A stretch of DNA of 64,000 nt from Schmidtea polychroa (taxonomy: Eukaryota). Made by a program: the position numbers and the translations under genes. Positions 23,701 to 54,900 of this stretch are shown here, piece after piece (position 1 is the stretch's first letter; every line of letters starts with the position of its first letter). The notes under the pieces were generated by a model. That model saw only the letters and a list, made by a program, of their open reading frames with translations. It searched no databases and was not told where the DNA came from. The DNA lies in assembly GCA_044892525.1 (NCBI GenBank), contig CM097885.1, forward strand, positions 188,418,001-188,482,000, read 5' to 3'.

Positions 23701-26700
23701 TATATGTAATTCGTAATGGTAACAGCATCAATTTTCTTATTCTCCATATGTTCGTACATCGTCAAGATTGGAAATTATGTTAATGAAAATATCAGACACG
23801 CTTTATACGAAGATGTGGCATTCAAGATCAACACAAAAAATGGCAACCAATTCATTAAAACAAATTAATATTATTACACAATGACCCTATTGATTATACA
23901 ATAGGGTATACTGTGCAAAACCCGACAATTACGTTATTACATATTCTATATGAAACCCGAGCAATACCTAATAATCTGCATGTATATACCACAATTACTC
24001 AACAGACGACTACGCAACAGGCATAAGGGGGCCTTTTGTTTGGACCACTCATAGTATACTATTTGAAATTTCACCGTTTTCACACGGTTACAATTTCTAT
24101 AGCACCTCAATTCAACAATGCTTTAGTATATAATATATGTGTGATATAGAAAAAATAATATAGAAAAAATAAGTAAAACATGCATACAAAACACATATAT
24201 CACAAACTTACAATGAAATTAAATGTTTCAGTTTTTACATTTGAAATATTTATTTAGCTCGCTTTGATTTGGTAAAAATGAAGACCAAAAATCAAAATTG
24301 ATTTTGTAAATTTTAAAAGTTGTAGCATTTTCATTAAAAAATTATATGAAAAATACAAGAAAACTGAATAACCATGGTGCTTAAGTAATATGATGAAAAT
24401 AAATGTTAAATTATTATGACTTTAAAATAGAAATAATTCTCTAATTTATTAAAAAAATATCAAACGAAAAATATTTTATTAAATTTCAATGCATTAAAGA
24501 TAATAAATGAATATTGTTTATGATGATTCACGTTAACATTAAAAAGCATCTATAATCATTTTAAAGAATAAAATTACGTTCTTTGATGTAATATTTATTT
24601 AAATTCAAAATCTGTCGTTGTCTCAATTAAAACAAATCGACGAATCAGTAATAATATTTATAAAATAATTACTTCAGCACGTTTTAATTTAATTTAATAT
24701 ATTATTTAATTATTTATTGCCATTCTCATATCTTTCCTTGCCTTTTAATATTTCAAATTATAGTTTTCCCCATGTGTCTCGATTCATAACTTCGGTTGTG
24801 CCTTTTATTTGTAATTGTGAATGAACATTAGAAAGGACTTTAACCAAAACTTTATCATTTACATTGCTCTTTTTGTTATCATAAATGTTATTGCTTTATA
24901 GTCTGCTCTAAGAATTAACTTATTTTCGTACAAATATTGTTTTTAGTGTTTTAGGAATAAGATATGACTACTCATTGCATGAGATTCCATTTTCATCTTA
25001 TTGTTATAAAACTGCTCCGGTTGTGTCAAAAACTGGGTCCATTTCAAAAATTAATGAATTTTTAAAAATTTGGATATATCAAGACTGATGGAGTAGCCAC
25101 GCTATTTTCAGTTCATTGAATTCTTCGCATTAATGATATCAACATGTCCTTATTATTTCCAATAAATTTTCTATAATAATTTCAAATTTCAAGGAACCTT
25201 TGCAAATTTTATAAATATATTTTTGTCTCTCAAAATTTTTGTTTTTAATTATTCGTTAACTGTCTGTATTCTTTGATATAACCTGGGACATTTGTTTCTT
25301 CATCAATACTCATTCACCTGAATTCATCTTTGAACATGATCATAATTTTCATCGTCTTGTCAAGTATTATGATCTCGTTCAGTAAATTACTGTTTCTTTA
25401 CATTTAAGATTACCTAGAACCACTTTCATTAATTTTTGAAACGTTGCCGAGATAATACGCACTTTCCAAATCTACTGAACTTTTCAAAATATTTAGATCA
25501 ACTTAAATGTCCAACATTTCTTTAATAGTTGGCCTAGGAAATGCCTCCCTTTCTGTAAATTTATTCAACGATAGGAAATCTAAACATAATTATTTCTCAT
25601 TTTTTATTCTTCCACACGTTTATCAGTGGTGTGTTGCATTGAGATTCACATTATCGATAATTCCAATTTCTAAATTTTCTATTGCTTCAGTTTTAATTTC
25701 TAAATGTTTTGTTTGACGTCTTGGTTTTTATCAAAATTCCATCATCAGTAATAACTATCACAGACAATTTTTTCAAAATCCTTTTATTTTTAAATTAGAC
25801 CAATCTCATGCCAAATAATGTTAAATCGATTATTCTCTTTTATATCTTTTTTATTGTACAAAATATTTCTATTAAATTTTTTATCGTTACTACCTTTAAT
25901 GGCAAATTTATTATTACAACTTATAATATTATTTAAATTACTACCGTGTTTTGCCGAATAAAAGTCATGACTTGTATTTATTTTTTTGCGTAAAATTGTT
26001 TAAAAATACAAAAAAGACTTGTATTGGGAGTAGTTTTTTTATTCAAAAATAGCCGTTTCGTCGCCCATATCATCTTCAATAATCTGACTGGATGCACTGA
26101 TATCCTGATTACGTAAATTATCAAATGCAGCTCTGATTTTTTCGCCGTATATTTCATGATTGTAAATTAAAGTTTCACTAAAATTCTGATTGTATAATAG
26201 ATATGATGCGCGTAGCCCATTATTGATAATATTCGTATTAATTTTTCCCCAAGAATGCCGAATCCAACTCTCTACTTCAACCAAAGGTGGTTTTATGGCA
26301 TTTCCCTTTGCATTTTTGACCATCCTATGTTCAATATAATCGTTTATTTTATCTCTCAATCCCAATTTAAACGGACTATTTACTGCCACATCCATAAGTT
26401 GCAAATAACCAGTCATCCCCGACGGAATCATTACTTGATCAATGTTTCTGGTCTGCAAAAATGATTTCATCTGGGTAGCCCGATGCGTAGAGGCCGAATC
26501 CCAAATTAGAAAACCTCTTTTTTGTCCCCTAAGCACCAATGGGAAATTGATGTCAATCCATTTTTTGAGAATGTCCTGGGTGGACCATGCTTTCTCCGAC
26601 TCCATTATATTCAAACCATTCCTAACTATAACAGTATCCTTTTCCCCCTTAATAATGGCTGTGGGAGATATCTTGGTTCCATTTAATCGTACACCCAGTA

Positions 26701-29700
26701 TACAAGTTAGCCGGCAACTTTCATAACCTGTGGATGGAACTCTTATTGATGAAGCTCCTCGCATTTCAATTGTTGTCTGCGAACTTTCACCATAGAAAAT
26801 GGCCGTTTCATCCATTGAAATACAAAATTCGGGATCATATTTTGATATATCCAAGCTATCAATAAAAGCTTTATAAGACAGAGTACGCTCGACTATATCA
26901 TCATCGGACAGTTTGAATAGCGTCGTTGATCGTCTCAATGAGAGGTCATATCGTTTCATAAAGCCAGACAACCACTTCCCAGAGGCGGAGAAACTCGATT
27001 CGGGATTACTAGAATTTTGTTGTGCCAGTCTAAGTGCATATTCTTGGATGTCAGAACGCTTTACGACTAAACTTCTAGATCTGCGCTCGATAATCCAGTC
27101 AAATATGTGTTCCTCAATGTCAGAAATTACCAATTTTCTTCCTCCGCCTTGAGCTCTGATCTGTCTCCCCGCATTCTTTAGCGATTGGAGATTCTCTTCC
27201 TCTGCTTTCCAACGACGAACAACTCGCAGATCAAGATTTACTTTTGCACAAAACTTTGCAAGGGTCATGCCGGATGTACGGGATTCACTGAGGATTCTAA
27301 GCTTATAATCTATTGTATAAGCCTTTCTGGAACTCTTCTGTGCGTTCATGGGTTAAAAAATGTCTACTAAATGAATATTGAATCAACGAAATTTAAAAAT
27401 CATTGTAAAAAACAATAATACAATAAAGTAAACGTATAAATGGTGTATGAATTAAAATAGGACTTGTAATAGGAGTAGGGCTTGTAATTATTTATTTTTT
27501 AAAAAACGAACAATGGGCTTGTATTGGGAGTATGACTTTTATTAGGCAAAACACGGTATTAAAATTATATACTATAATCACAGTTATCCTTATTTATTAT
27601 TATTAATTAATTTTAATTATAATTGTTTTATTAAGACATGCACTACCATAATCATTTAGTGCATTGCTCTAATCACGTGAAAAGACATGACTTTTGGGAA
27701 ATCAGTCATTCTTATTGAATCGTCAATATCGTCTTCGCCAGTCTTTTTTCGCAACTCTGAACCTTGTATAATTCTCTCGAATACTCACGGCTTGTCTGTC
27801 TATGATTGCGTTTAATGGCATTGAAATTTTAATGACACCTACAATTTAAGCATCAACTTTCCTTATAACATTTTTGTTTTCTATCTTCATGACATCTTGC
27901 ATTTTTTTCTCTTTGTTTTTCTTTCAAACGATACACTAAAACTATGCAGTCAATTCATCGGTCCAGAGATCTCATTTATTTCTTCACTGACTATGCAACT
28001 TTTTCGAAATGCAATGCTGTTTCTATATCCTTTTCATAATTGTAAATTTCCTAAGATTTCTTTTATCCTATCAATGTTGCTGGGTTTAAGAATGCTTCTA
28101 ACAATTAATTCTCAAATTCTTGGCTTGCTTCAGGAATTACTTTGTAAATTGACAATATTTCACTTTTATAAAATTTGTGTTCGCCATGTAAAGAATAAGA
28201 TTAAGTTTGTTGATGTAATATTTATTTAAATTCAAAATCTACTGTTATTTCCATTAACCTTCCTCTACATAATACCCCTCGTGATACACGGAGTACTGAA
28301 ATCGGGTCATGAATTTCAATATGAATTTCTCAATAATAAAATTAACATAATCAATAATTGCTTCCATGCATGTTTTAATTTAATATATTATTTACTGTCA
28401 TCACAATGATATCATAATATCTTTATGATATCAAAATAAAAAAAAATTAAAATAAATACAATAAATCACCACAATGTAGTATGTAGTTTTAGTGTATGTT
28501 TAGTATATAGTAAGCCGTTTTTAACCAGAAACTCCAGAATTCTAATATTCGAACAAGAAAAATAATCAATTCGACATTATAAAAGAAATACATACCAAAT
28601 TCCTACGAAATCGCATCTGTGTGCGCACACCAATACGAAAAACAATTTTAATAATAACATGCACACAGACGCGAGGCCGAAATCGACTGAAACAAACTCA
28701 ATTAAAAAATAATAAAGATTTAAAAATAGTTGGGCTTTTTCGGACGAGTCTCGACCACTGTATGGTCAATACTGGCTATTACTGTAACTTTTAGCCTTTA
28801 TCCTACTCCAGACAATAATAGAGGATCATTGACTGCCATATCGGGGAAATCCGGTACTTCAGTAACGTCATGTCTCTTGTTTATCACACGTTTTTGATAT
28901 TTCAATTATGTATAGATTTTTTATTTTTGTGGTAAGACAAAGCAGAACTAAATTAGTGACTTGTCGAACTTTGATTTGTGCTTTAGTTCGGTTTGAAGTT
29001 TAGACCCAATTCAGAATTCAGCAATGAACCCTGTACGATCAAAATAATAAATAATTCAAGCCCTATTCAGCAGTGCTTGGGAAAATTCGAAAACTTGAAT
29101 GATTTTAATGTTATTTTAAGACACAATAAAACCAAATAACCTGTCTTTATTTTTCTTGAAACTGTTAACTCGTCCATAGTGAAGCAGTCTATAATTGGAG
29201 CTATAAACAATTTATAGGCAGTACAATACGTGTCACACAAGCTGCTTACTGATGTCAATTTATTTGAAAGTACCTAATTAGAAAGAAGCTGTCATAATAT
29301 TTTATTGGTATTTCCAAATAAAGGGGCTGCAAAATCTATTTAAAAAAAGTTGATATCATTTTCGCATTCCGAATATTTGATTCGATTGGTTCCTCGGATT
29401 CGGCAAATAGTAATTTTAAATATTCGGACTTCGGTAGGCTTCTACCCTCCAATCAAATACAAATTACTCAAAAAGAAGCAAAAACATTTACAATTTAGAT
29501 TGACTAGTAAAATAAATTAAATTACAACCGGCATATCATACATACTTAATTGGTCAATAAAATAGTTAAAATTTTTATTAATGTTCATAAAGTCGATAAT
29601 ATATACAAAATGAAGTTAATTTCTTAATACTGTGATAAATTTTAATTAATTCTAAACAATATCTGGAACATCTTCGTTCAATTTCAACATACCACAAATA

Positions 29701-32034
29701 TTCAAATATTGATAAATAAATCACTTTCAATGTTTGGAAGTGTTCGAATTTACCTATAAATATGAATGTATCTATAATTTCACAATTGATTAAAAACTAT
29801 AATTTTAAAAAATTTTCGGAATCATATTGATTATCGTGTTAAAAAGGTTCGCTGCAAAATCTTATCAAATTTCAAATGATTTTCAATGTCTTCCATTACA
29901 TTTGAAAGTCTTCTGGCTATGACTAAATCCGTTTTTACAGTAATATTTATTTAAATTGGACAAATAATGATTCATTCGATAGAAAAGTCGGTTTTCAGAT
30001 AATATTGAACTTAAAATGTCACGATGTATAAATTCCAATATAATTCAAACCATGAACCGCGAATTTCTTCAAAAATATTTGAAAAATGACGTTTGTATGT
30101 TAAATTATCTCAATAATAAATAACAATTACATTAATTTTTCAAATCAATTTATATATTAATATAATAAATCTATATGTATAGCAAATAAATTTTGCAAAA
30201 ACATATATTGCCAAATAAATTATTCTTACAGCATCTAGCTGTTGTATTTATTAAAGTATTCTGTAGTATTCGTATTCTTGAAGAAAGTTTAGAATGGAAA
30301 TAATTTGTTCATTCCGTCTCTAAACAATTTTTGTTCGCTTTCGATGCTTTCAGCAAGAATTAAAATATCCGAGGAATTTATTCTCTTATCATTTTAGATA
30401 TCCACACAATATCCATATTTTTCGACATTTTATCCCCAACCAGGCATTTATTGATCACTTCTGAAACTATTAATTTTCTTTAATTTTGATGTTTCTGAAT
30501 TTTTCTGGCCGTGACTCACCAATTTAGATATTAAATTTGTTTTTTATATCAATTAACTAGGTCTCGTTTGTATAACTTTAATAGCCAAATAATTTTAAAT
30601 TAATTTAAAGTAATTCTAGCTAAGAAATGAGTGAGGTAGAAGGTGGTTTCACACCAAAGAGAAGGAAGTGCAATTACAATGCAGATTGGCAAAAAATATA
30701 TACTTGAGTCAGCGATACGGTTTTGAACCGGACAGTCCGTTAATTCAACTACTTGTCCGGTGGGAAAAAATTAAAAACAGCATAGTCTAAGGTTTATTTT
30801 AAAATTTTGTCCGGTATTCTTTAAGGTTTCACCTGGCAACCCTACTACTACTTTTGTATGTTAAATTATTTCAAAAATGAATTACAATTAATTTGCAAAA
30901 TCAATTTATATATTAATCTATTTCAAAATTAATCATTGACAATATATCGGTGGTCACGCCATGTTACTACGAAATAACTTTTTCTGATGAATGATCAACA
31001 ATGACTTCAAAATTGTTCTTTATAAATCCTACATATATATAGTTTGTATATGTGCAGACTATTTTTAGAAATAAATGAACAAATGAGAAATATTTTATTT
31101 TATTTGATCTAAAATTTTAACAACTTCCATATTTTTTAACGAATTGCCCTTCATCAATTTTCCCTAATTTTAAGAAACTATGACAGAAATGTTAGTAGTA
31201 AATAGTAGATTTTAAAGAAGTAAAATTGCTTGTCCGTAATTCTGAGTTCAGTAGATAACCAGTCGAAAATTTGTGAATATTTTTTTGTAATGAAGTTTTA
31301 AGTTACTGACTTCATAATTTGCAAGAGTTAATTTGAAAATAAGGCAATGGCTTTGCTCTATTGTCAAAAATGTCAAATCATGTTCCCATCTAATTCTAAA
31401 ACTTTTCTTGTCTTTTGACCCCATAATAAAGGGGTTTGAATATTCCTTTAATGTTTTGTAAACCTAACTCCAAAATAAATATGAAATTATGTGATAATTA
31501 TAACACTGTAAAATTACTAGATAATTTTTAAAATCTTTATTTCTTATATATTTAATATTTAATATATATTATATTGCCCAAACAATTTACTCAAGTAAAA
31601 ATATTTACTTTAAGTATTGAGTAGCCACATTAAAGACACTGAAATTTGGTCATGTGTGGTATATATTAATTACAAAATTAATATTGTTAATAAAAATTGC
31701 ATTAGTATTGATTGATAATATTTCAATAATTAATTTACATTTTGATTATTATCTCACACTATGTCATCTTAATTTGTAAATATATAAAATGCTCTTTATT
31801 TTAAAACATTTTCGAAACGACATTGGTTATCATGTAAAAAAAGTTTCTCTAAAAAATATTGATATTTCTGAGTCAGTTAATAAGAGTTGATTTCTTTTCA
31901 GTGGGCAACAAATGGCCCAGCAAATGCAGTCAGCTAATCCAGAACTAATCGACTCATTGAGAAATAGATTGCATGAGACCCCATCAAACATCGACAACAA
32001 CAATAAAGATGATAATCAGGAGCCCTCAATTTGA
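11716..32034 (+). CDS. SGTA: Small glutamine-rich TPR-containing protein (SGTA/SGTB family co-chaperone), 7 exons, 334 aa
   Basis: Exons are 11716-11815, 11862-12017, 12060-12159, 12287-12391, 12439-12723, 14706-14831 and 31902-32034 (1005 nt, all GT-AG, in frame). The protein has the N-terminal dimerisation segment (..CLESLEVAKQCLENVW), three TPRs ([62 protein letters not shown]), LSSILNNPMMMNMAQQMM, and the C-terminal GQQMAQQMQSANPELIDSLR motif typical of SGT proteins. Confidence 0.95.
13157..13286. promoter_or_regulatory. Pair of RFX X-box-like motifs in SGTA intron 5
   Basis: GTTACCATGACAAC (13157-13170) fits the DAF-19/RFX consensus GTHNYY-AT-RRNAAC. ATTACCATAGCAAC (13273-13286) fits RTHNYY-WT-RRNRAC. 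Motif match only. Confidence 0.35.
13559..13875. mobile_element. hAT (Buster/Charlie-type) MITE, 317 bp, copy 1
   Basis: TIRs CAGTGCTTCTTAAACT / CAGGGCTTCTTAAACT, degenerate 8-bp TSD GCCTAACC / GCTTAAGC, internal GCGACCCC repeats. Near-identical to 37546-37837 in the opposite orientation. Confidence 0.9.
14055..14426. repeat. Long inverted repeat / foldback-like element (about 133-bp arms, about 105-bp spacer)
   Basis: 14055-14187 is the reverse complement of 14293-14426 with about 16 mismatches by hand alignment. No TSD identified. Confidence 0.8.
15170..16500 (-). repeat. Tandem duplication of a roughly 600-bp unit (2 full copies plus a start) carrying a decayed antisense exon-like segment
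   Basis: The anchor GCATTAGTATTGATTGATAAT recurs at 15193, 15772 and 16419 (periods 579 and 647 bp). Further copies lie at 29990-30950 and 31680-31760. Confidence 0.85.
17990..19420 (-). pseudogene. Decayed Buster/ZBED5-like hAT transposase
   Basis: Minus-strand fragments with many stops and frameshifts: MDKYLSGLKRKLNE.., SFGFTCKIINDQERPLCLLC (BED-like), FTLQVDEATD (first catalytic D), WIGLCTGGAPSIAGKNAGLRTLVQKVAP (CTDGA motif decayed). Termini not resolved. Confidence 0.8.
19450..20691 (+). mobile_element. Decayed mariner element (about 1.24 kb)
   Basis: Transposase remnants: GSGRPRT HTH linker, RWVPH (19968), DEKWIY (20077), QHDNARPH (20314). Weak TIRs GGAGACCGGCAAAAAA / GGGGTCGACAAAAAAA flanked by TA (19448-49, 20692-93). 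Size is typical of mariner. Confidence 0.75.
21866..22627 (-). mobile_element. hAT (SPIN/GTF2IRD2-like, Buster group) deletion derivative, 762 bp
   Basis: Perfect 16-bp TIR CAGGGGTGGGCAAACT and 8-bp TSD GATTAAAC with central TA (21858-65 / 22628-35). Carries a minus-strand N-terminal transposase remnant (..CRECVSVFKEYNLKRHYETRH.., HKIVKRNKPFSDGEF). Confidence 0.92.
25944..27556 (-). mobile_element. Intact pogo-superfamily (Tc2/Passer-like) DNA transposon, 1613 bp
   Basis: 25-bp TIRs CCGTGTTTTGCC(G/T)AATAAAAGTCAT (1 mismatch), TA TSD (25942-43 / 27557-58), a single uninterrupted transposase ORF, and subterminal GACTTGTATTGGGAGTA-like repeats. Confidence 0.95.
26039..27349 (-). CDS. pogo-family DD35D transposase, 436 aa
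   Basis: N-terminal HTH (RKAYTIDYKLRIL), CENP-B/Tc5-type HTH (WIIERRSRSLVV..FSASGKWLSGFMKRYDLSLRRST), and a DDE_1 domain with SMDET, LIWDSASTH and QLMD. There are 35 residues between the second and third Asp. Confidence 0.95.
   Translation of the reverse strand: MNAQKSSRKAYTIDYKLRILSESRTSGMTLAKFCAKVNLDLRVVRRWKAEEENLQSLKNAGRQIRAQGGGRKLVISDIEEHIFDWIIERRSRSLVVKRSDIQEYALRLAQQNSSNPESSFSASGKWLSGFMKRYDLSLRRSTTLFKLSDDDIVERTLSYKAFIDSLDISKYDPEFCISMDETAIFYGESSQTTIEMRGASSIRVPSTGYESCRLTCILGVRLNGTKISPTAIIKGEKDTVIVRNGLNIMESEKAWSTQDILKKWIDINFPLVLRGQKRGFLIWDSASTHRATQMKSFLQTRNIDQVMIPSGMTGYLQLMDVAVNSPFKLGLRDKINDYIEHRMVKNAKGNAIKPPLVEVESWIRHSWGKINTNIINNGLRASYLLYNQNFSETLIYNHEIYGEKIRAAFDNLRNQDISASSQIIEDDMGDETAIFE
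29990..30950 (-). repeat. Dispersed copy of the roughly 600-bp unit at 15170-16500, interrupted by a hAT fragment
   Basis: Shares long stretches with the 15-16 kb units (GTATGTTAAATTATCTCAA; GTATTCTGTAGT..GGAAATAATTTGTTCATT..GCTTTCGATGCTTTC). Another unit start lies at 31680-31760. Confidence 0.75.
30627..30844 (+). mobile_element. hAT fragment (N-terminal codons plus one TAGGGTTGCCA-type end)
   Basis: Reads MSEVEGGFTPKRRKCNYNADWQKIYT*, followed by CCGGAC subterminal motifs and the terminus ..TGGCAACCCTA. The other end was not found. Confidence 0.5.
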
Positions 32035-32790
32035 TAACCGTTCTTCGTATGTTGCAACATCAAAATATCGTTTGTAATTATCAACAAAATGAGCAATGAA
32101 ATTTTGATTTGTTTGTAATTTATTTGAGCGGTTTAATACATTTTGTTATTGATTATCAGATTACATTTAGTTAGACTTCGTTTTGTCGCCAATTATCATG
32201 TGTAAATTAGTTATTATTAATATTACTATTATTTTTTTAATGAAATAACAAATTAGTTGTCAATTTTGTTTTAATTGTACAATAGAATTGTGATGTGAAG
32301 GTCAAAAAAGGGCTCTTTATTTCAAAAGTTAATATTTTGGTTGCGTGTTTGCATATTCATTTATTTCGTAGAAAATGGTTTTAAAGTTTTATATGAATAT
32401 CAATAAAATATGTAATTAAATATAGTTTTGTATTAAATATGAATTATTTGTGTAAAGGTAACATTTTTGTCATTTTAGGGTAAATAAATAAACTTTCAAT
32501 CGAATAAGATTAATATATTAATCAAGTTCTAGCAATACCTGCACAAATGCGTCTAGTCGTATATGTCACATCCGCAAATGTCGTGTATGAGGAAGTTTTA
32601 TGATGAAGAAATTTTTAAATTGAAAAAATTAAATTTTAGATTAATTTTTAAGATAAGAAGATATTTTAATTAAAAATATCTTCGTAGAAAATTTGTTTAA
32701 AGAAGATATAATTTGATTCTGATATTTACTGAAATAAAATTTATGGAAACAAAAACTGATTTTAATGTTTTACAGGATGAACAGCCTAAT

Positions 32791-33827
32791 ATGGTGGCAG
32801 CGGTAAACACTGACGCAATCACCGAAAGATTGCTACCAAAGGTATTCTGCCAAGGTGACGACTTGGAAAAGTTCATTAAAAGATGCGAAATTTATTTCGA
32901 CGCCAAGGGAATCACGCAGAAGAAAGATTAACATCTTGCATGATTGATGAGGATCTCCTGGAAGTGTATGCCAAAACACTGAAAAACGCCGAAGGATTCC
33001 AGGCTAGGTTGCGATTGGCATTCGATCGCGAAAGAGATGTTTTAAAGGATCTACAAAACTTGTTGAATTACAAGCGGAAGGGTGAAGAAATAGAAACGTA
33101 TTTTAAAAAGGTGGAGGACCTTGTTGATAGGTTGTTTGAAAATAAAGAATTTACCAAAGAGAAATTAACAGCAAGGATGTTAATAGTATGTGCGGAGAAT
33201 AAAGAAGTTGAGAAAGAAGTGATACTACGGAAGATAAAAAGCACAGAAGAAATAAAGGAAACACTAATTCTGATGGACAAAGTAGACAAGCAAAGAAAGC
33301 AGATAAACAGTATGAAAAGTTACGCCAGAGTGGTCTATCAGGAACCACAGGGAAGAGTACAATACAAGAAGAAAGAACAGAGAGAAGAAAGTATCCGAAG
33401 AGAAATGCCAGAATGCTAGTTATGCCACAAAATAGGACACACGAAAATTGATTGTCCAATAAAAGGTAAAATAAAATGCTGGACATGTCATAGAAGCGGA
33501 CATATAAGTAGAAACTGTCCAGATAAAAAAGCTCCAAGATTTTTTGGGTGTGGGAAAGAAGGTCATATAAGAAGATTGTGTCAGGAAATACGTTGTGAAA
33601 AATGTAGCAGAAATGGTCATAGATCCGAGGAGTGTTATACAAAGATGAGGTACGGGAGAGCGATGGAGAGACAAAGATTCACGGGAAACAGATACAGTCG
33701 GATAAATGGCATCGAGGAAGAAGAAGAAAGGGAATCGTGTGTAGAGACAAATGAAGATAATTTTAGGAAGACGTACCCAAACAACAGGGCTCCACCAGTA
33801 GAGGAGTTGGTTGGAGCCATATTCTAA
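32791..33827 (+). pseudogene. gag: gag with four CCHC-type zinc knuckles (frameshift near 32930, TAG at 33417-19)
   Basis: MVAAVNTDAITERLLPKVF..; knuckles C*LCHKIGHTKIDC, CWTCHRSGHISRNC, FFGCGKEGHIRRLC, CEKCSRNGHRSEEC. Confidence 0.85.
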
Positions 33828-33835
33828 CAGAAAAT

Positions 33836-36800
33836 TTGATGGGATATCCTCAAGGGACAGAAAAGTGCGATAATGTTGGAAGGGTAAGCGAGAAAGTATA
33901 CAGGTTCCTAAAGAGAGAAATGTTTGAAGAGGAAGTGGAAAGAATTGGAACCATTGAAACGGAGCAGATTGTTGAAATTTTGTATAACAAAATGCAAGGA
34001 AGGCCTAGTATAACAGTAAGGATGAATGGGGAAAATTTCGACTGTTTATTAGACACTGGTGCAAGAATCAATGTAATGAGTGTGAACTGTTTTAACAAGC
34101 TACGAGGACAACAATTGACGAAAAGTGACGATAAGTTACGATGCGCAAACGAGAGTACGATCGAGACAATAGGAAAAATGAAGGTGCAAGTAACCATTGG
34201 AAATGTTTCGAAGGAAGTTATATTCATTGTGGCGGAGAAAGTGACACCAGATGTGATTGGAGGAATCGAATTATAAGAAACATTTGGATTTAGACTGTTA
34301 AAAATTAAAGATATCGAAGCTAGTGAAAAAAAACAAGAACTATATTTGTAACATTGAAGCAAAATTTGGCAGAAAAATAAAGAATGAAGAACGATTGATA
34401 CGAGCGTTGGAACAGTTAAAGATCAATGAAGATAGCAAATTAAAGGAAATTATAAAAAACAGTGGAAACATGTTTATGGCAGATAAATGGGATGTGGGTC
34501 GCACATATTTGGTAAAACACAAGATAGTTACAAGAGGTGAGCCGATAAACATAAAACCATATCGCCAACCACTAAATTTGGAATCAAAGATTGAAGAAGC
34601 AATACAAAATTTGTACGAAAATGGAATTATACGGAAATGTAACTCTCCATGGAATACACCGCTAATATGTGTATGGAAAAAAGAGAAAAAGGATATTAGA
34701 CTATGCTTGGACTTTAGACAGCTGAACGCGGTAACAGAGAGGCAGGTATTTCCAATGCCAAACATAGACGAGATGTTGGATTTGTTAGGAGGATCCGTCT
34801 TTTTCAGCTCAATCGATCTAGGTAATGCATATTACCAAGTGGAACTAGAAGAAGAATCACAGGAGAAAACAGCTTTCTCAACAAAGAACGGACAATATTG
34901 TTTCAACAGAATGCCGTTTGGAATTGCAGCAGCACCAGGTACGTTCCAAGAAATGATGACAAAAGTATTAGGCAAAATAAAGGGAGCAATGGTGTATTTG
35001 GACGACATCTTGATTTATTCAAGCAGTAAATAGAAACACTATACAATACTTGGAGAAGTGTTAAAGGCGATTGAGGAAGCAGGCCTAAGGATTAATCCAG
35101 AAAAATGCCAAATAATAAAGGAAGAAATCAGATTCTTAGGACACGTAATCAGCAAGGAAGGAGTACAGACAGATTCATCTAAAATTCAGGCCATACAGAA
35201 CTTTGGGAAGCCTAATTGCCTAAAGAAACTCCGAAGCTTTTTAGGTATTTGCAATTATTATAGAAGATTCATCAGTGATTATGCAAAGGAGGCAAGGATG
35301 TTAGAACAATTATGTAGCGGACCAAGTAACAAAAAATTAGAATGGAGTGAAGGAACGAAAAGCGTGTTTGAGGGATTGAAATTAGCACTCACGACGGCGC
35401 CAATTTTATGTTTTCCGGATCTGAAAAAGGAGTTAATTTTAGATACCGACGCTAGTTTTGATACCATTGGAGCAGTACTTTCTCAAAGAGATAAAGATGG
35501 AGAGGAAAGATTATTTGCGTATGGATCACACTCGATGACGAGCCACGAGAAAGGATATTGTATTACAAGAAAGGAACTATTGGCGGTATATTATTTTTGC
35601 ATTCATTTTAAGCACTATCTCTACGGAAGAAGATTCACGCTCAGGACAGACCACAAGGCAATCACGTTTATGATGACATCCAAGAAGCCGATTACTTCAC
35701 AATTCCAAACATGGATCAATTATTTGAGCAGTTTAAATATAAGAGTAGAATACAGAAAGGGTATTAATCACCAAAATGCAGACATGGTGTCGAGAACTAA
35801 ATGTGACACGTGTGTTCAATGTCAAATGACCCACGAAGAAGCTAAGAAAGGAAAGATAAAAACCAGATTACTAGACTCGATCAGAGAAGAAGGAAGAAGC
35901 AACATCCAACATGGAATTGTAGAAGAAGTACGAAAGAAAACGACGATACCTGAAAATGAGTTACAAGAAACAATAAAGGAAATACATAGACTATTGTGTC
36001 ATGCTGGAGTCGAGAAGATTGCCGATTATATGAAAGATAGATATGTTGGAAAACACCTGTGGAGTCAGATTCAGGAGATTGTTCGAAGTTGTGAGATTTG
36101 TCAAAAAACCAAGGCTTTAACAATAACAACGAAAGAACCAGTAAGAAAACAAGATTCGAAGGAAATGTTCGAAATTATATTCGTGGATATATGTGGACCG
36201 TTGACAGAAACAAAAGGACGTAAGAAGTATATATTGGGCATAATAGAGCAGTATAGTAAGTATCAAGTCTTGACAGCGATAACAAAACAAGACGAAGAAA
36301 CAATAAAGAAAACGATTTTAGAAAAGTGGATTTTAAGATTTGGATGCCCAAAGGAGATAAGAGTTGATTGCGGAAAGGCGTTTGAATCAGGAATGATGAG
36401 AGAATTCACAAAGATGCTAGATATTAAATTATGTTTTTCGAGTCCATACCATCACCAAACAAACGGTCAGATAGAAAGACAATTCAGGACAATACGGGAT
36501 TTGATAAATGCTACTTTACAGGATAGAAAGAAGACAGATTGGGCAGAGATATTACCAGAAGTTGAATTCACTTTAAATGCAACCAAACAAAAAACGACAG
36601 GGAAAAGCCCGGCAGAGATAGTTTTTGGAAAAAAGATTAGCAAGGAAAAATGGTACGGGTCCAAAGAAATACCGATAAAGGAAGAACTAGAAGAACAAAC
36701 AAGGAGAAAATTCAATGTAGGAGAAGAAGTATTAGTAAAAGTAGAAACACGCCACAAAGGCCAGGACAGGTATGAAGGTCCGTACAAATTGATAGAGAAA

Positions 36801-36896
36801 GTGCATGACAGACGATACATCTTAAGAAATGAAGATGGAAAAAGGATCGAAAGAAATGTGGAAAAACTTAAAGATTTCTTAAGAAGGGGGATATGA
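33836..36896 (+). pseudogene. pol: pol (protease, RT, RNase H, integrase) with TAA at 34274, a frameshift near 34325 and TAG at 35031
   Basis: Protease CLLDTGA; RT LCLDFRQLN / FNRMPFG / VYLDDILI; RNase H ILDTDAS..KELLAV..TDHKA; integrase HRLLCHAG..CEIC, VDICGP, RVDCGKAF, NGQIER, and a C-terminal GPY motif. Confidence 0.93.
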
Positions 36897-37545
36897 GGAA
36901 GTTTTATGATGAAGAAATTTTTAAATTGAAAATTTTAAAAATTAAATTTTAGATTAATTTTTAAAAAAAATAAAAAGATATTTTAATTAAAAATATCTTC
37001 GTAGAAAATTTGTTTAAATAAGAAAGTTTTAAGAAGATATAATTTGATACTGATATTTACTGAAATAAAATTTATGGAAACAAAAACTGATTTTAATGTT
37101 TTACAGGATGAACATCCTAATATCGTGGATGTTACGTTTGGGCAATATAGCATAATGCCATTGTATTTTCTAGTAAATTTATAATATTAACTGAAAGCAC
37201 TTTCAGGAATTTGTATCAGCTACAGAAAAATTATCTTAAAGAAGAGTGCTCCATACAAAAAGAAAGACGACAATAGGAAAAAATAAGGAAATGGAATAGG
37301 TATTACTACAGACAATGTAATGCGGGATTATGTTCGTAAGTTGTTTTTTGAAATAGTATACCAAATTATTTTTAATTATTAGTATATAAACATGTGCAAT
37401 ATTTTGATAAAAAATTTTTGTGAAAAATTCCCTACTAAAATGGATTTATTTATCTGAGACACTTGGCTGGGGTCAACACTTTAAAGCTCTGTCTGTTAGA
37501 CATCATAAAATACGGTAACGATGATTTTTTCTCAATACTCTAACC

Positions 37546-37837
37546 CAGGGCTTCTTAAACTATGGGTCGCGACCCCGTTTGGGGTCGCCTAGCGAAATAT
37601 TGGGGTCGCGAAATTTTTATATAAAATATTCAAATACATAAAATTGCATAATTGTCGTATGTTTTCCTACTCATTAGGCAAATGAAACGTGAATTTTGTC
37701 ATATGTATTTATATTATTACTTAATTAATAAATCTTCACAAAAAATTTATATATCTTTATTTTAAATTATAAGGGGTCGCAAAAAAGGTTTACAATCATT
37801 AATGGGGTCGCGAATGAAAAAAGTTTAAGAAGCACTG
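37546..37837. mobile_element. hAT (Buster/Charlie-type) MITE, 292 bp, copy 2
   Basis: TIRs CAGGGCTTCTTAAACT / CAGTGCTTCTTAAACT and perfect 8-bp TSD CTCTAACC (37538-45 / 37838-45). Reverse-complement match to 13559-13875 apart from a roughly 25-bp internal deletion. Confidence 0.93.
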
Positions 37838-42997: not shown

Positions 42998-45900
42998 GTA
43001 AAACATGTAATTCCATCGTTGTTTTAGTCCGATACCGATTACTTATTTCTTTTAAAATTTAAAAAAATACAACGGAAAATCGATTTAAAAAAATATTTTG
43101 CAAGTTCAAAAAAGTTAACTGAAAAGCGGTTTTAAAAAAAATTTAGCATATAGCATGCTCTGAAATTTTTTTAAATTACGCAATAATTTTTAGTTTTATT
43201 TTAAAAGAATAAAGTCACATGCAGTAAAGTTTTAAAAGACTAAAGTAAATGTTAAAAAAGTTAAAAAATAAATAAACAGAAAGTGAAAAAAAAAATAAAA
43301 TTTAATTAGTGCAGGGCTCAAATTTTTTTTATTTAAAGTATATATAATTTCGGTCGTACTTCCAGTATAATTTTTACATATATACAACACAGTAATTTAA
43401 TTTATATTGGATTTTTCTACACCTATTATTAAATCTATTATATTCTATTAATTTTTACTTGAGGTAGCATAATGGCAGATAGAAAAAAATTATCTGGCGC
43501 ACAAAATAGAAAACGTAAAGCTGAAAAGAAAAATGAAGAAAAAAAGCAAGAAGGTGCTTTTCTGAAATATATTTGTCGTCAACAATCACAAGATAAAAAT
43601 CGAAATGAAATGACTCCGAGAAAACAAGTATACTGCAATTTGGAAGAGCAAATGGATAGGAACTCTACAACTAGAAATGCAGAGGTGCCTATTTTGACTG
43701 AGTTTCCACATACGAATGTGGAAGAAACTATAGAAGAAACTGAAGTTGAAACAATTGAAGAAACTGTTGAAGAACCTATAGAAGAAATTGTATTAGAAAC
43801 TATAGAAGACACTGAAGAAATTTTAATTAATGAAACTTTGGAAATATTAGAAAGCGTAAATTCGAGTCTTGATTATAGTGATCCGGCAACTTGGTTAAAT
43901 TCACATGACTTACGTTCTGGCCGTTTGAGGCAAATTTTGGTTGAACACGGACCAGAACAAATTGAAGAATTTGATTTTCCTCAAAATGAGAGCCATAGAA
44001 AATTTTCAATGAATTTTTATAGAAGGAGACTTGCAAATGGAGAAGAAATGCGGCGTCATTGGCTACAGTATTCCAAAACAACTAATTCGGCTTTCTGCTT
44101 TTGTTGCAAAATTTTTAATAATAACCAGCGTGTAATACATCTCTCCGATAAAGGATCAAGCGATTGGAAAAATATGTCTGTAATTTTAGAAAGACATGAG
44201 AAAAATAAGGATCATTTAATTAATTTTCAAACTTGGAAGGAGCTAGAATTGCGTTTAAAAAAGAATAAAACTATTGACCAGGATAATTTGCGTCTCATAA
44301 AACAAGAAGAGAGACACTGGCAACAAGTCTTAGAGCGTCTTATAGGTCTAGTTAAAGTGCTTGCTACGCAAAATATTGCATTTCGCGGAAGCAATGAAAA
44401 ATTGTATTCTCCTGGAAATGGAAACTTCCTTAGCTTTGTAGAATATTTGGCCTCTTTTGATCCAATTATGGGTGAGCATCTTCGCAGAATAAAGAACAAT
44501 GAAACACAAGTTCATTATTTGGGAAAAGATATTCAGAATGAGTTAATACAACTTTTATCTAAGAGTATTAAAACAAAAATTTTAAAATCGATTTCCATGG
44601 CTAAATATTTTTCAATAATCCTGGATTGCACACCAGACGTTAGCCATACTGAACAAATGACGTTGATTATTCGTTTTGTCCATACAAATACAGAAAATTG
44701 TGATTTAGATCCCATATGCATAAGAGAACATTTTTTGGGATTTGTGAAACTAACAGATACAACTGGTGCTGGTATGACCGATGAAATCGTTCAGATGTTA
44801 GCAGATATGTCATTACCTATTGAGAACTTGCGTGGCCAAGGATACGATAATGGTAGCAATATGAAAGGCAAAGAAAATGGCGTGCAACGGCGAATTCTGA
44901 ATCTAAATCCACGAGCATTATTTGTTCCTTGTTCTGCGCATTCTTTGAATCTGGTTGTTAATGACGCTGTAAGCTGTTGTTTAGATGCTACATCATTTTT
45001 TATGTTAGTGCAACGAATATATGTCTATTTTGCCGCTTCAACACGTCGATGGGAAGTTTTAAAACGTCATGCTTCAAACTTGACAGTGAAGCCATTGAGC
45101 GATACAAGATGGGAGAGCCGAATCGATGCCCTTAAACCTCTACGCTATCAGCTAAGTAAAGTTATTGCTGCACTTATTGATATTTTTCAAGATACTTCTC
45201 AAACAGGAGTTTCTGGTAATACTTCACGTATAGAAGCACAGGGCCTTGCTAAAGCTATTTCGAATTTCGAGTTTGTAGTTTCTGTTATTATCTGGTATGA
45301 TATTCTTTTCAACATAAATATTACAAGCAAACAACTTCAATCTGAGAAAATTAATATTCAAGATGCTATGAAGCTACTAGAAGATACCAAAAAATTTCTA
45401 TTCAACTCCCGAAATGATGAAGGTTTTGAAAGAATATTGGTAGATGCGCGAGAACTTGCTGAAGAATCAGAAATTTCCCCAATCTTTAAACAAACTCAGC
45501 GTATCAGAAAACAAAAAAAACAGTTCGAATATGAAGCCAACGATGAGCCCATTCAGAACCCAAAAGAAAAATTTAAGATCAGCTTTTACTTCGCAGTTTT
45601 GGATAGAGCTTTAAAATCTGTTGAGCAAAGATTCACCCAAATGTCAACGATAAATTCAACATTTGGATTTCTATACAACATACATAATTTGCAATATATT
45701 TCGTCAAAGAAAATATTAGAGGATTGTCTTAAACTGGAAAATTTTTTACGGCACGATGATTCTAAAGATATTGATGGTACAGATTTATTGAACGAATTGA
45801 TATTTATAGCTAGACATATTCCAAAAAACTTATTGCCGGAAGATGTACTTAATTATATTTGTAAAAATAATATAGTGGACAGCGTTCCAAATATATTTGT

Positions 45901-48900
45901 TGCTTTGCGAATTTTATTAACCCTACCAGTTTCTGTGGCAAGCGGTGAACGAAGCTTTTCGAAGCTTAAACAGATCAAAACATATATAAGATCTACAATG
46001 TCACAAGAACGGCTTGTGGGATTAGCAATATTGTCGATTGAACACGAAATGGCGCGTGATATAGATACGAAGTTGCTGCTTGAAGATTTCGCTAAACTAA
46101 AAGCACGAAAAATTAAATTTTAAATGGTTTTTGTTTTTATATATATTTTTGTGTAATAAATAAATGAAGTATAGTTATTTTATTTTCATTTACTTCTTTA
46201 ATTATTGGGTTTGTTTCTAGACTAGAGGCGCCATTTTTTTAGTTTGCCTAGGGCGCCAAATACTCTAGCGTCGGGCCTGTGTGCAAGTCTATGCAAATCT
46301 CAACAATGAAATCTTTCCATAAATTTTTATTAAAATTATTTAAATGTAAATTTCCTCTTAATAAAATCACAAACTAAAAGATAATAACAACAGATTAATA
46401 CAAACTGAAATATTTAAGTTAAAAAATTCAAATATTAATTTTACAAATATATTATTTCTATTTTGATTTATTTATTTATACCTTTATTTAGTAAGATGTA
46501 ACATTTTATTTCTCTTTCTAAACTTGGTCCTATTATGGAGGGTTATTTGTCCCAGTAAACTACTGTGTAAATTTGGTTCCGAAGAAATAGAGGTCTTAAC
46601 TAGAGGTGGTCTCTTTAGGGAGGTGCTTTTAAGTAGAGGTTTTACTGTATAATCATTTAAAAGTTTTAGAAAGAACTGTGACATTCTTAAGGACAACCAC
46701 ATTTTCAATGTAATTCATATTCAATTTAATTTGATTTTGATAAATCCATCAATTAATATAATAAAATAAATACTCATGAATTTATTGATTTTAGAATTAA
46801 AAAAACTTTTCATCTATATCTATCTGATTCTTTTGATAATATCATCAAATTATATAATTCTCTAAGCAGTGGCGGAACTTCAAAATTTGGGTCCCCCGCG
46901 CAATGTAAAATAATTCCACAATAATTTTTTTTAACAAAAACAAGTTAGATATTTATTTCATACATCATAAAATAATACAAAAATGAAACTAAAACTTAAT
47001 GGACCTTAAATATTAAAATCTTTCCTCCATGCCTTCATATTGGCAAAAAAAATTTTCGGTTAAAGTTTAATACATAGTTATTCACAGCAGCCGCTATTCA
47101 ATGATAGTTTTATGTTTGTAGGCAAATATAACTGCGGGAAAAAAGTTTCAGAAAATGATTGTAAATATTTTTTTAGTAATAATTTTGGGGCCCCTATAGC
47201 TGGTGGGCCCCCGCAACGCAGGGTCCTGCGTCCACTAGTTACGCCACTGTCTCTAAGCAGTGGCGTAACAACGGCTTGGTATTGGGGCAGTTGCCAAGAG
47301 CGCCACAAAATTTTTATTTAAATAGATATTTCACTTTTATTCTCGATAACAAAAAAGCTAATAATTAATTTTATTTAAATATATTTCATTTAAACCATTA
47401 TAATATACTTGATCGATTTTAGATTTTTAGTAACTGAAATCAATTAATCAATTCTTAATAAGAATAAATAAGTAATTAATTAAATTCATTGTCCAGAAAA
47501 TAAATATATTCGGAATAAATAAACACAACAGGAAAAACAGGAGATGGAATTGCCTAGGAAATTAAAGCAGCATTTATTCAAATGGTTTATCACTTGAAGA
47601 TGTACGCGGCCAAGGCTACGATAATGGGGCCAACATGGTAGGGAAGTACGAGGGAGTTCAAGCCATACTTCAAAAAGAGAATCCACTTGCTCGGTATTTT
47701 CCGTGTTGTGCATATAATCTTAATTTGGTAGATGTGCACGCGGCAAGCATTGATGCAGATGTTGTGACATTTTTCGGAACTATACAGGCATTGTACAATT
47801 ATTTCTTCTCGTCAACTAGTAGATGGGAAAAATATCCTCAGTTACTGCAATCAGTCTAAAGAAGCATACGGACACAATATGGTGTTCCACAACAAATGCT
47901 GTAAGTGCCATATATGAGCAACTGGAGCAAATTATTTTAAAATTAATTGAAATGAAGGATAATAACTTACTTAGTGACGCATTATTTGTTGCTAAATTAT
48001 TGCACCGCCAAATCAATAAATACAAGTTCATTGCGTTTATAACTATTTGGAATTTGATATTGGAAAAAATAAACAAAGTCAATGTAGCACTACAAAAAAG
48101 ACCAGGATATTTATCAATCGTCGTTGTTAATTAAAGGACTTTTAAATGACTTTGAAGATCTAAGAACTAACGAAATCTATAATATTTTTGCCAAAATTGA
48201 AAAAAACGTATTAAAATGAAAATCGAACCAGTTCAAAAAAGGAAACCAACATGAAAACGAATACCAGGAGAGCATGCTGAAGATGAAGAACCTAACTTGG
48301 ATACATTCAAAATTTCTTGTTTTGCAAATATGGATTCAATAATGATCCAGTTAAAAGATAGATTTGTTTCTCTGAAAAATATAGAAGAAGATTTTAACTT
48401 TCTGGCTGGCAAAGCGTTTCAACCTTTTACAATGGAGGATTTAGAATCTAACGCTGGTTTATTATCAGTCATATATCCTGAAATAAATAAAGAGCAATTT
48501 ATAATTGAAATAAAATGCTTTAAACACTAAATGATTGAACTATTGGAAAGTAAAAAACCCGATGACATGTTTCATTTAGATCTTTTAAATGTTTTTGCTA
48601 CATGGGAATTGCAAGAAACGTACCCGAATATCGAACGAGCCCTGAAAACATTTCTTACAATGTCAACTACAGTAGCCAGCGCTGAAAGGAGTTTCAGCAA
48701 ACTAAAAATTATTAAAAACTACTTGAGATCAACGCCAAGTCAATAACGCACATCATCTCTAGCTCTTATTTCCATCGAACGTGAACTTACCAGTCAAATA
48801 AACTTCAATGAAATAATAACTAATTTTCCAAACATTAAATCAAGAAAAGTTAAGCCTTGAGCCTTTGATATAGAACTAGGAGTGTATAAGTGTAGTATTA

Positions 48901-51900: not shown

Positions 51901-54900
51901 TTTGGAAATTCACAGCTGAATGGGACTTCCTAGAATTTCTCCGATATCTCTCAGTGAGCATAAAATTATTTCTTACGATCTGTGTGTCTGTGGCTTCATG
52001 TGAGAAGAGTTTTTCAAAGCTAAAGTTTATAAAGAACTATTTGTGATCTACCATGGGACAGTGATGAGACAGTCTGATCTTGCAATATTATTAATTGAAA
52101 GTGATTTGGCGAAAGGAATTGATTTCGATGTAGTAATTAACAAGTTTGCAGCTCTAAAGGCCAGGAAAGGAAATTCCTGGTTTAGTCAAGATTTAATATG
52201 ACATAAAATTAACTTCTCAGTTTTTTACCAACAACGTTGAAATAATTTTTTCTTATATTGCCTTTTTAAATATAGAACCTATATTTATTAACCTTACTAA
52301 GGATTCTGTATGTTTCCGTTATTTGGCACTGGAGGACTCGGATTAGGTCTATGGGGTGTCTTGAGGGGGGTGACACCGTGAGTTATGTATTATATCAAAG
52401 CATTTATTTAAGATAAACTTAATACTAAAAAATGATAATATGAACCTTATGAGGAAGTTGAAATATTCTTAAAGATTAATTAGAAATTTGTTAAATTTAA
52501 AAAATATTTTTATCGAAAAATATTTAAAAAAAAAACTGAAATTTGTTTAAATAACAAAAATAAGAGAGACAAGTGTTTGAGTGTATAATTTATTAAATAA
52601 AATTTATGGAATTATTTAGTGATTTGAAAACAGATTTTAATGTTCTAACGGATGAGAATCCTAATAAACCTTTTATTTATAAATTCTAAATTCTGATTCT
52701 GAATTTCTTTTATATCCTCCCTTTGAAGCACCTTTTCTCTGCAAAATACATGGTATGGCGAAGCTTATGATTCGTTTAAAGATATTTCATAATTAAATTA
52801 TAATTTAACTAGTAAGTTTAAAATGATAAATAATTTTTAAATTTTCCAATGAAAAAAAAACAATTTCACCTTTAAAGCAGACTTCAAGACAACAATTTGA
52901 CCGGGAGATTGAATAAATGGTTCGCCATCAACTTGAACTGGTAAATCATTCTTTAATGTTATTTTCAACTTAACATAAATAATTATAATAAAATAAATTA
53001 AATATAAAATAAAATAATAATAATAATCATAAAAACTGATTCAAAATATAAATTTTGCTCACATGAGATGCCTGACCTATTCTAATTCCACTTCTCAATC
53101 CGGAATGTATTTGACCCATATGTACAACACCAGAAACTCCAACAACCTCTAGCATACCATCATAATGAGTAGGCTTGTTAAATCTATCATCTCGTTCTGT
53201 GGCCCAAGGATTAGCTCCTCCAGCCCAGGACATGATATTAAGCACAATTAGACCTTCAATTGGAGGTAAATCAAGAATCTTGCTATCTGCTTCAACAATG
53301 ATTTGCTTATGAAGATCTTTGCATGTTGTTCGATACATCATCTTGCGTAGACCCATTTTCAAATAAACGCTCTTATTGTGCATTCTAAAAACATAAAAAG
53401 TACACTTCAAATTTGAATATGTAAAGTTATCTGTAAATTTATATTTTATTTCACTGAGACTGCTAATTTGCAAATAGTAACTTACTGAAAAGAATATTGA
53501 TTTCACTAAATGCCAATGTTTGGAAATCATCGAAATACAAAATTTTTTATGTAACAATGCATATCTGTAACGCTATTTAAAAGTTTAAAATAAATAAAAA
53601 TTAATTATTAGTCATGGATTAATTTTTAAATAAAAGTTTCCACATGTTTTATATAAAAGTTTTGAATATAAACATAGCTTTAAAAAGTGAATTATGTGTT
53701 TTGATTTATGCACTGCTAATACATAAAAATAACTAATTATCTAAAGCTTAAATTTAAATATGAAAAATCAAATTTCCATGACGATTCTGCAAACTGGAAA
53801 AGAAGGTAAAATGTTTCCCGTGTTAAATATTTGAACCTCTCTAGAGATCACCCGGATAAATTTAACACTTCAGTGTGTTTTGGATGCAATATAAATGACC
53901 ACATTATAAAAGAAGAGATAGGCCAGAAAAATATCGAAGAATCACAAAAATAGAACAAAATTCAACGAGAAGACCGGATTCTGAGAGCAATAGTAAAATA
54001 TCAAATAACTTTGGGTGTTTGACTTTTGAAATAATGCTTGGAAGGAAACCATGAAGAAGAGAAGAAGAAATCAGAAAACGGAAGAATTGAAACATGATAG
54101 TGATTAAGAAATGATATTAATCGAATTGAAACGGACGTCAAAATAAGGACAGACAAAACAAGAAAGTTTATGGAAAAGATTTACTATAAAAATAAATGGA
54201 CTCTTGTTAAAGTTGAACAGAGAAATGGTTTGGAAGTACTGTACACTAAGCTATATGAAATTGTAGAGAAAATAAACGAATGGACTACGAAGCTTCTGAG
54301 TAAAACGAATGAAGAATAATTCAGCGAAATTATAATTAAATAAAAATAATTCCGAGTATATCAAATGACATTGTGGCGGAAAAGGATAGTTGAAAGACAA
54401 GTGTAACAACTAAAAAGTCAAAGATAGCTAAAATACATGAGGAAATACCTGAAATATCGGGACACAAAAGAACTTTAATGACCTTAGCATAGAAGTAATG
54501 GAGCACCCTTTATGTAGTGCTTATGTTCTCATATATAAAAATAACCAGTGAATTTGATTTGCTTATCCAAAAGATTACGACACCATGTACAAACTGTTGT
54601 ATTTGTGATTCAAAATAAAAAAACGAGCATCTCCGTCATAAACAAATGGAAAAAAATATTATAAATGCGAACATGGGAATTGAAAAAATAATCTTTTCAT
54701 TATAAAATAATCTCCCTATATTCCCTACAATACAACACATTTTATTAAAAAAAGAAGCAAATAATAAAATATTATAATGTTTATAATATATTTATTTCAT
54801 CGACTATATATAACAATGTATTTTAAAGTTTTTTAATATATTTTCATTATTCATAATTTAGTCTATTCTTATTCTTTCATCATTAAAGGCGTCAACTAAA

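Follow-up and report, generated by a model that had tools for sequence, protein, structure and literature searches.

Published accounts treat the terminal CA as invariant for retroviral integration and the role of TG..CA ends in long terminal repeat (LTR) retrotransposons as poorly understood (PMC5659011; here and below, statements on published work refer to the excerpts available from each source). AtRE1, a Copia element of Arabidopsis, has TA..TA ends (10.1101/137141), and lotus carries 154 TATA Copia copies as well as 184 Gypsy copies with non-TGCA ends of a type not given in the available excerpt (PMC9804982). The LTRs of Drosophila errantiviruses read AGT...AnT (PMC5408687). Here we analyse a stretch of 64,000 nucleotides from the planarian Schmidtea polychroa (the window; contig CM097885.1, positions 188,418,001 to 188,482,000), which contains at 32586-37122 a defective member of a high-copy Ty3/Gypsy family with TA..TA inserted ends. 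The end type itself is not new, and an earlier note made from the DNA letters alone (the sequence-only reading) overstated its rarity, since TA..TA had already been described for AtRE1 and the lotus Copia copies.

Read directly from the sequence, the TATGAGG...CCTAATA element is flanked on both sides by TCGTG (Table 1). Its LTRs start at 32586 (TCGTG followed by TATGAGG) and 36892 (AAGAAGGGGGA followed by TATGAGG) and finish with CCTAATA at 32791 and at 37122, where TCGTG follows. The Pfam domains run zinc knuckle, protease, reverse transcriptase (RT), RNase H, integrase, which is the Ty3/Gypsy order and not that of Copia, where integrase precedes RT. Two LTRs, a tRNA primer site, a purine tract and a target duplication of 5 bp (4-6 bp expected) complete the Ty3/Gypsy picture, and the Gypsy assignment made by the sequence-only reading is borne out by the domain order. 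TG..CA termini, typical of Ty3/Gypsy but not defining, are absent. So is the env gene of errantiviruses, as the integrase frame stops inside the 3' LTR; AGT...AnT termini are likewise absent from the element and occur only in the AG..CT sister branch described below. Stops and frame changes interrupt the copy; in the alignment of its two LTRs, 202 columns are identical, 4 mismatched and 25 gapped. At 36889-36896 the final pol codon, ATA, overlaps LTR bases 1-2 and is followed by a stop at LTR bases 3-5; a metagenome relative (L134) has ATG and then TGA there, so the end change affects only the last integrase residue. The primer site matches tRNA-Leu(AAG) genes of the genome, and a tandem array of such genes has a 287-bp period (G000:C4 from 9542334, L214), with 1789 pattern matches genome-wide.

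Table 1. Coordinates of the TA..TA element and of the solo LTR in the window
Feature	Position	Strand	Basis
Left target-site duplication TCGTG	32581..32585	+	sequence
5' LTR, subfamily A, 206 bp, TATGAGG...CCTAATA	32586..32791	+	sequence, LTR alignment
Primer-binding site TGGTGGCAGCGG, no spacer to LTR; complements 3' end of tRNA-Leu	32792..32803	+	matching tRNA-Leu(AAG) genes in genome
gag region, CCHC zinc knuckles; in-frame stop at 33417-33419	32880..33827	+	zf-CCHC E 6.6e-9
Aspartyl protease frame, closed by stop	33767..34276	+	gag-asp_proteas E 9.7e-9
Reverse transcriptase, first part; in-frame stop at 35031-35033	34302..35033	+	RVT_1 E 2.6e-21
620-codon open frame: RT end, RNase H, integrase (HHCC zinc finger, rve core)	35034..36896	+	Pfam, open-frame list
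His codon in integrase loop PYHHQ, aligned with PFV integrase Pro214	36453..36455	+	alignment
Polypurine tract AAGAAGGGGGA, directly 5' of 3' LTR	36881..36891	+	sequence, genome-wide junction counts
3' LTR, 231 bp, TATGAGG...CCTAATA	36892..37122	+	sequence
Right target-site duplication TCGTG	37123..37127	+	sequence
Solo LTR, subfamily B, 219 bp, TATGAGG...CCTAATA	52448..52666	+	AACCT duplication at 52443-52447 and 52667-52671

The window holds a second insertion with the same ends, a solo LTR that is about 70% like the LTR of the element. It belongs to a second subfamily (B; the element is A), so the two are independent insertions, as the sequence-only reading had held, and the ends and 5-bp duplications that it gave for both are exact to the base. 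Among 11 fetched subfamily B loci, one complete and one partial LTR pair were found, neither with a matching duplication, and the subfamily therefore rests on its solo LTRs. An exon of diacylglycerol kinase theta (53057-53401, minus strand; best protein matches in flatworms) lies about 390 bp from the solo LTR, which is probably intronic.

Across the genome, TA..TA ends are with near certainty a family trait. Queries with A- and B-type LTRs gave 40 scored matches each, from 816 and 1588 candidates; among these loci, chosen by likeness to the query, 30/30 of A type start TATGAGG and finish TAATA, and of B type 30/30 start TA and 27/30 finish TA. To avoid this bias we counted primer-site and purine-tract junctions genome-wide. 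The 12-base primer site TGGTGGCAGCGG occurs 545 times (control 1), preceded by TA in 520 cases and by CA in 3, these three being themselves members of the TA..TA family; all 30 loci inspected were assigned to A or B. The purine tract joined to TATRAGG occurs 492 times (control 3), with 28 of 30 inspected loci in A or B. The family thus has at least about 500 primer-site junctions. The sequence-only reading had named beforehand, as the outcome that would speak against a family trait, a majority of TG..CA members; the count is 520 TA to 3 CA.

Target duplications fix the same ends. Both LTRs were present in 14 of 20 fetched stretches, with nine exact 5-bp duplications, three with one mismatch and two failures; the LTRs of the paired copies differ at 1-5 bases, and in young pairs all four ends are TA. 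A register test compared 31 insertions with 930 cross-paired flanks, setting aside two duplicate loci (L017, L036), two loci with no LTR end (L058, L060) and LTRs lacking a partner. At TA..TA, 5-bp duplications were exact in 21 of the insertions and 10 of the cross-paired controls; among other 5-bp registers the best reached 8/31. A 4-bp register with the right end shifted by one base reached 24/31, but we discount it because it is nested within the 5-bp duplication and would require the last LTR base to vary from copy to copy. Together with the junction counts, these duplications mean that decay cannot account for the TA ends, in agreement with the sequence-only reading. The 21 exact duplications lean weakly towards the target A, T, any, A, T (12, 12, -, 16 and 12 of 21), and many insertions of the family, as of its sister families, sit in (AAT)n runs.

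LTR-LTR junctions, a possible record of unintegrated ends, gave two matches, both chance flanks. Part of the element is present in 20/24 rows of sequencing runs; three RNA or possibly-RNA runs, of four examined, left the LTR start uncovered and did not show transcription. The viral contigs searched held no relative of the element, an ESM Atlas search returned generic integrase clusters only, and the close protein relatives (42-58% in integrase) bear no informative names.

The origin of these ends is illuminated by relatives in the same genome. Four families (C-F), with about 51-53% integrase identity to subfamily A, have TG..CA ends, reading TGTGAGG or TGAAAGG ... CTAACA or TTAACA, and exact duplications at that register in 11/20 and 4/9 loci; their purine-tract and primer-site spacing is that of the TA..TA family. 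Because these ends have G for A and C for T at equal spacing, TATGAGG...CCTAATA lies two transitions from the canonical form, and in TA..TA ends the terminal A joined to the target is retained on both strands. Among 30 metagenome loci, the purine-tract junction was found in 19 (17 TG, 2 TA) and the right end was readable in three (2 CA, 1 TA). Arg-type junctions, TAAYA followed by TGGCGACC, number 1801, of which 291 have TA; 26 of 30 inspected belong to three further families (G, H and I). Family G has TG..TA ends, with exact duplications in 4/7 copies, while H and I have TA before the primer site but gave no clean duplication in 12 fetched. Ends of the form TGTGAGG...CTAATA are seen in G (L254, L255, L257, L258) and in the metagenome locus L134, and they represent a half-way state between the canonical and the TA..TA form, with an origin separate from that of the TA..TA family.

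A sister branch, met during the search for Pro-loop controls, has the integrase loop PYQHQ and AG..CT ends (AGTAA or AGTTA ... TAACT), with exact 5-bp duplications in 13/24 loci (5/9 and 8/15; AG..CT loci L302, L306, L308, L309, L311, L313-L317, L319, L324, L325) and no clean LTR pair in the remaining stretches. These elements measure 3.7-4.7 kb, with the 3' LTR close behind pol; many of their LTR pairs are 100% identical, and the last LTR T doubles as the first primer-site base. Two Pro-loop families of the same genome retain TG..CA ends, with five flagged exact duplications and one by eye in eight pairs, one of which has a single-copy change at the left end. A control through primer motifs was uninformative: there were 76, 4 and 21 matches, and 20 of the 76, on inspection, had no LTR pair and were mostly one unrelated repeat. 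L273-L285 belong to a repeat of at least about 60 copies that carries AAAATATGGCGACGAGCAAC and is not an LTR junction.

We compared the integrase with those of prototype foamy virus (PFV) and Ty3 (PDB 3oym, 7q5b). The PFV loop YHPQSSGKVER aligns with YHHQTNGQIER here, placing His at the position of PFV Pro214. In PFV, the strands of the viral DNA terminus are separated by Pro214-Gly218 (PMC6784120), and the scissile dinucleotide runs over Pro214 (PMC3395085). The His is found in 51/51 aligned proteins, TG..CA families included, and it was rejected as the determinant of TA ends because the TG..CA sisters share it. A/B differ consistently from 17 TG-starting relatives (right end unread in 11 of the 17) at eight of 325 integrase columns. 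One is loop residue 475, which is Gln in 32/32 A/B copies and Asn or Ser in 17/17 TG-starting relatives; Gln matches PFV Gln215, in an enzyme with CA ends, and is also found in the AG..CT branch, and other TA-bearing relatives retain Asn or Ser. The residues aligned with PFV Gly218 and Arg222, which we take to contact the C:G pair, are unchanged. Residue comparison, suggested by the sequence-only reading, revealed one striking change, but one that is older than the TA ends, with few separating columns beside it. The accompanying idea of an integrase altered to recognize TA did not gain support: the His is common to TG..CA sisters, and the active-site-loop column has the Gln of PFV.

In trees built on RT-to-integrase segments, in which several rows are less than half filled, A and B form one clade on a long branch of their own. 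A single origin for all TA right ends was rejected (p-AU 0.00013), as was grouping A/B with G (5e-6) or with L134 (0.001); one clade of A/B with L118 was not rejected (0.156). The His-loop rows, including the AG..CT branch, group in a single clade (100/100); Pro is present in the nearest outgroups with a readable loop, and in outgroup P0019 the loop motif was not found. The His change is older than the TA ends and marks one lineage that has TG..CA, TG..TA, TA..TA and AG..CT families in the same genome. Family G, the rejected single origin and the AG..CT branch together argue that ends changed repeatedly within it.

How does the family compare with described systems? As in AtRE1 and the lotus TATA Copia elements, 5'-TA...TA-3' is an inherited, transposition-competent trait, and the LTRs are short in both (on average 229 bp in lotus, 206-231 bp here). 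Those elements belong to the plant Copia superfamily, whereas the present family has the Gypsy domain order, lives in an animal and has at least about 500 primer-site junctions. With canonical Ty3/Gypsy elements it shares the protease-RT-RNase H-integrase order, the tRNA primer site, the purine tract and the DDE core, and with Ty3 the 5-bp duplication; it differs in having TA for TG/CA, and His where PFV has Pro214. Like the Drosophila errantiviruses it is a Gypsy-group family with inherited non-TG/CA ends, and its AG..CT sister branch is errantivirus-like; unlike them it has no env, makes 5-bp duplications and has no fixed 4-bp palindromic target. The plant TG..TA (AcCOPIA1), TA..CA (TARE1) and soybean Gypsy-like TG..CT elements show single-end changes like those of family G and L134, but they are plant elements, mostly Copia, and the excerpts name no integrase loop residue (PMC5659011, 10.1101/137141). 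A planarian genome paper annotated Gypsy elements with EDTA and, in the available excerpt, does not mention termini (PMC11410931). Our literature search, whose coverage excluded most subscription journals and Repbase, Dfam and GyDB, turned up neither a His-loop lineage nor a TA..TA-ended Gypsy family in any animal.

What could account for these ends? It is very improbable that the true ends lie elsewhere, TA being a left-over spacer, part of the target duplication or post-insertion decay. TATG does contain a TG starting at its third base, CA-TA closes the bottom strand and 10/31 insertions lack an exact duplication, but TA is common to both LTRs and to solo LTRs, the 3' end has no CA nearby, young pairs have TA throughout, the sister families have G for A and C for T at equal spacing, and both the primer-site counts (520/545) and the register test contradict the idea. 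An unprocessed two-base spacer was rejected separately, as the spacing equals that of the sister families. We lean instead towards a lineage-wide loose end reading, in which the integrase would require the last A and tolerate T for the preceding C, and we consider it a better fit than a TA-specific enzyme. A single transition at each end of the TG..CA form likely gave rise to TA..TA ends, which likely spread under such tolerance. By analogy with Gypsy copying, tRNA-Leu would prime reverse transcription, both LTRs would be rebuilt from one transcript, hence the changed end would be inherited, and integrase would join 3'-TA ends to a 5-bp staggered cut. The tolerance would be old and lineage-wide rather than the mark of a new TA-specific enzyme, with the Pro-to-His change in the end-wedging loop as a candidate cause.

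We consider it unlikely that the integrase co-evolved with the ends and now prefers TA, as the sequence-only reading proposed. TA is nearly fixed (520 to 3), A/B sit on a long branch, and residue 475 with seven other columns separates them; yet Gln at 475 is that of a CA-reading enzyme and of the AG..CT branch, TA-bearing relatives do without it, the Gly218 and Arg222 positions are unchanged, and descent from one founder would also yield fixation. A tolerance, general to LTR integrases, of T for C at the penultimate position, with TA having drifted to fixation in an AT-rich genome and the His loop incidental, seems rather unlikely. In plant Copia, elements with TATA, TGTA or TACA ends turn up repeatedly without forming a single clade (PMC9804982), GC makes up about 30% of the genome and the His-loop families C-F remain canonical; but non-canonical ends make up about 1% of plant LTR elements (PMC9804982) against four end types in this lineage, one of which, AG..CT, loses the terminal A, and two Pro-loop families of the same genome remain TG..CA. 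Stronger, and possible but on balance doubtful, is the proposal that Pro-to-His in the loop that pries the DNA end apart freed this unnamed Gypsy lineage from the CA rule, its families moving repeatedly to TG..TA, TA..TA and AG..CT. Several points weigh against loose end reading and its link to the loop. His arose once, and with only two Pro-loop control families the link is a correlation of one event, carrying no statistical weight; four His-loop families retain TG..CA, and 1510 of the 1801 Arg-type junctions keep CA. Plant Copia elements also reach TA..TA, TG..TA and TA..CA ends (PMC9804982), so tolerance of C-to-T may be general, and the dominance of TA in the family could reflect a real preference. 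No contacts to the C:G pair were found in the excerpts of PMC5329712, PMC3554684, PMC9144474 and a Ty3 intasome preprint, and both loose end reading and the integrase activity behind it are predictions.

The window also holds a hAT transposase in an 883-codon open frame (43472-46123, plus strand; DUF4371, Dimer_Tnp_hAT), a Tc5/pogo-like transposase frame of 436 codons (26039-27349, minus strand; HTH_Tnp_Tc5, DDE_1), a repeat of about 300 bp present as an inverted pair (13559-13880 and 37541-37837, 94-96%), a hairpin element with 156-bp arms (14047-14434) and a repeat with 580-650 bp spacing (15086-16554 and 30076-30922).

In practical terms, confining LTR searches to TG..CA would lose or wrongly trim several of this animal's high-copy families. 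The concern that standard finders miss the family was overstated: LTRharvest applies no motif unless told to and LTR_retriever includes a non-canonical module, according to the excerpts available, while a run with '-motif TGCA' would presumably miss it. The lineage-wide series of ends is of more interest than TA..TA itself, as related integrases in one genome with TG..CA, TG..TA and TA..TA ends, and AG..CT ends in a sister branch, make natural enzymes and their ends directly comparable. If the His loop is indeed causal, these young end types side by side would form a natural series bearing on why LTR elements and retroviruses keep CA.

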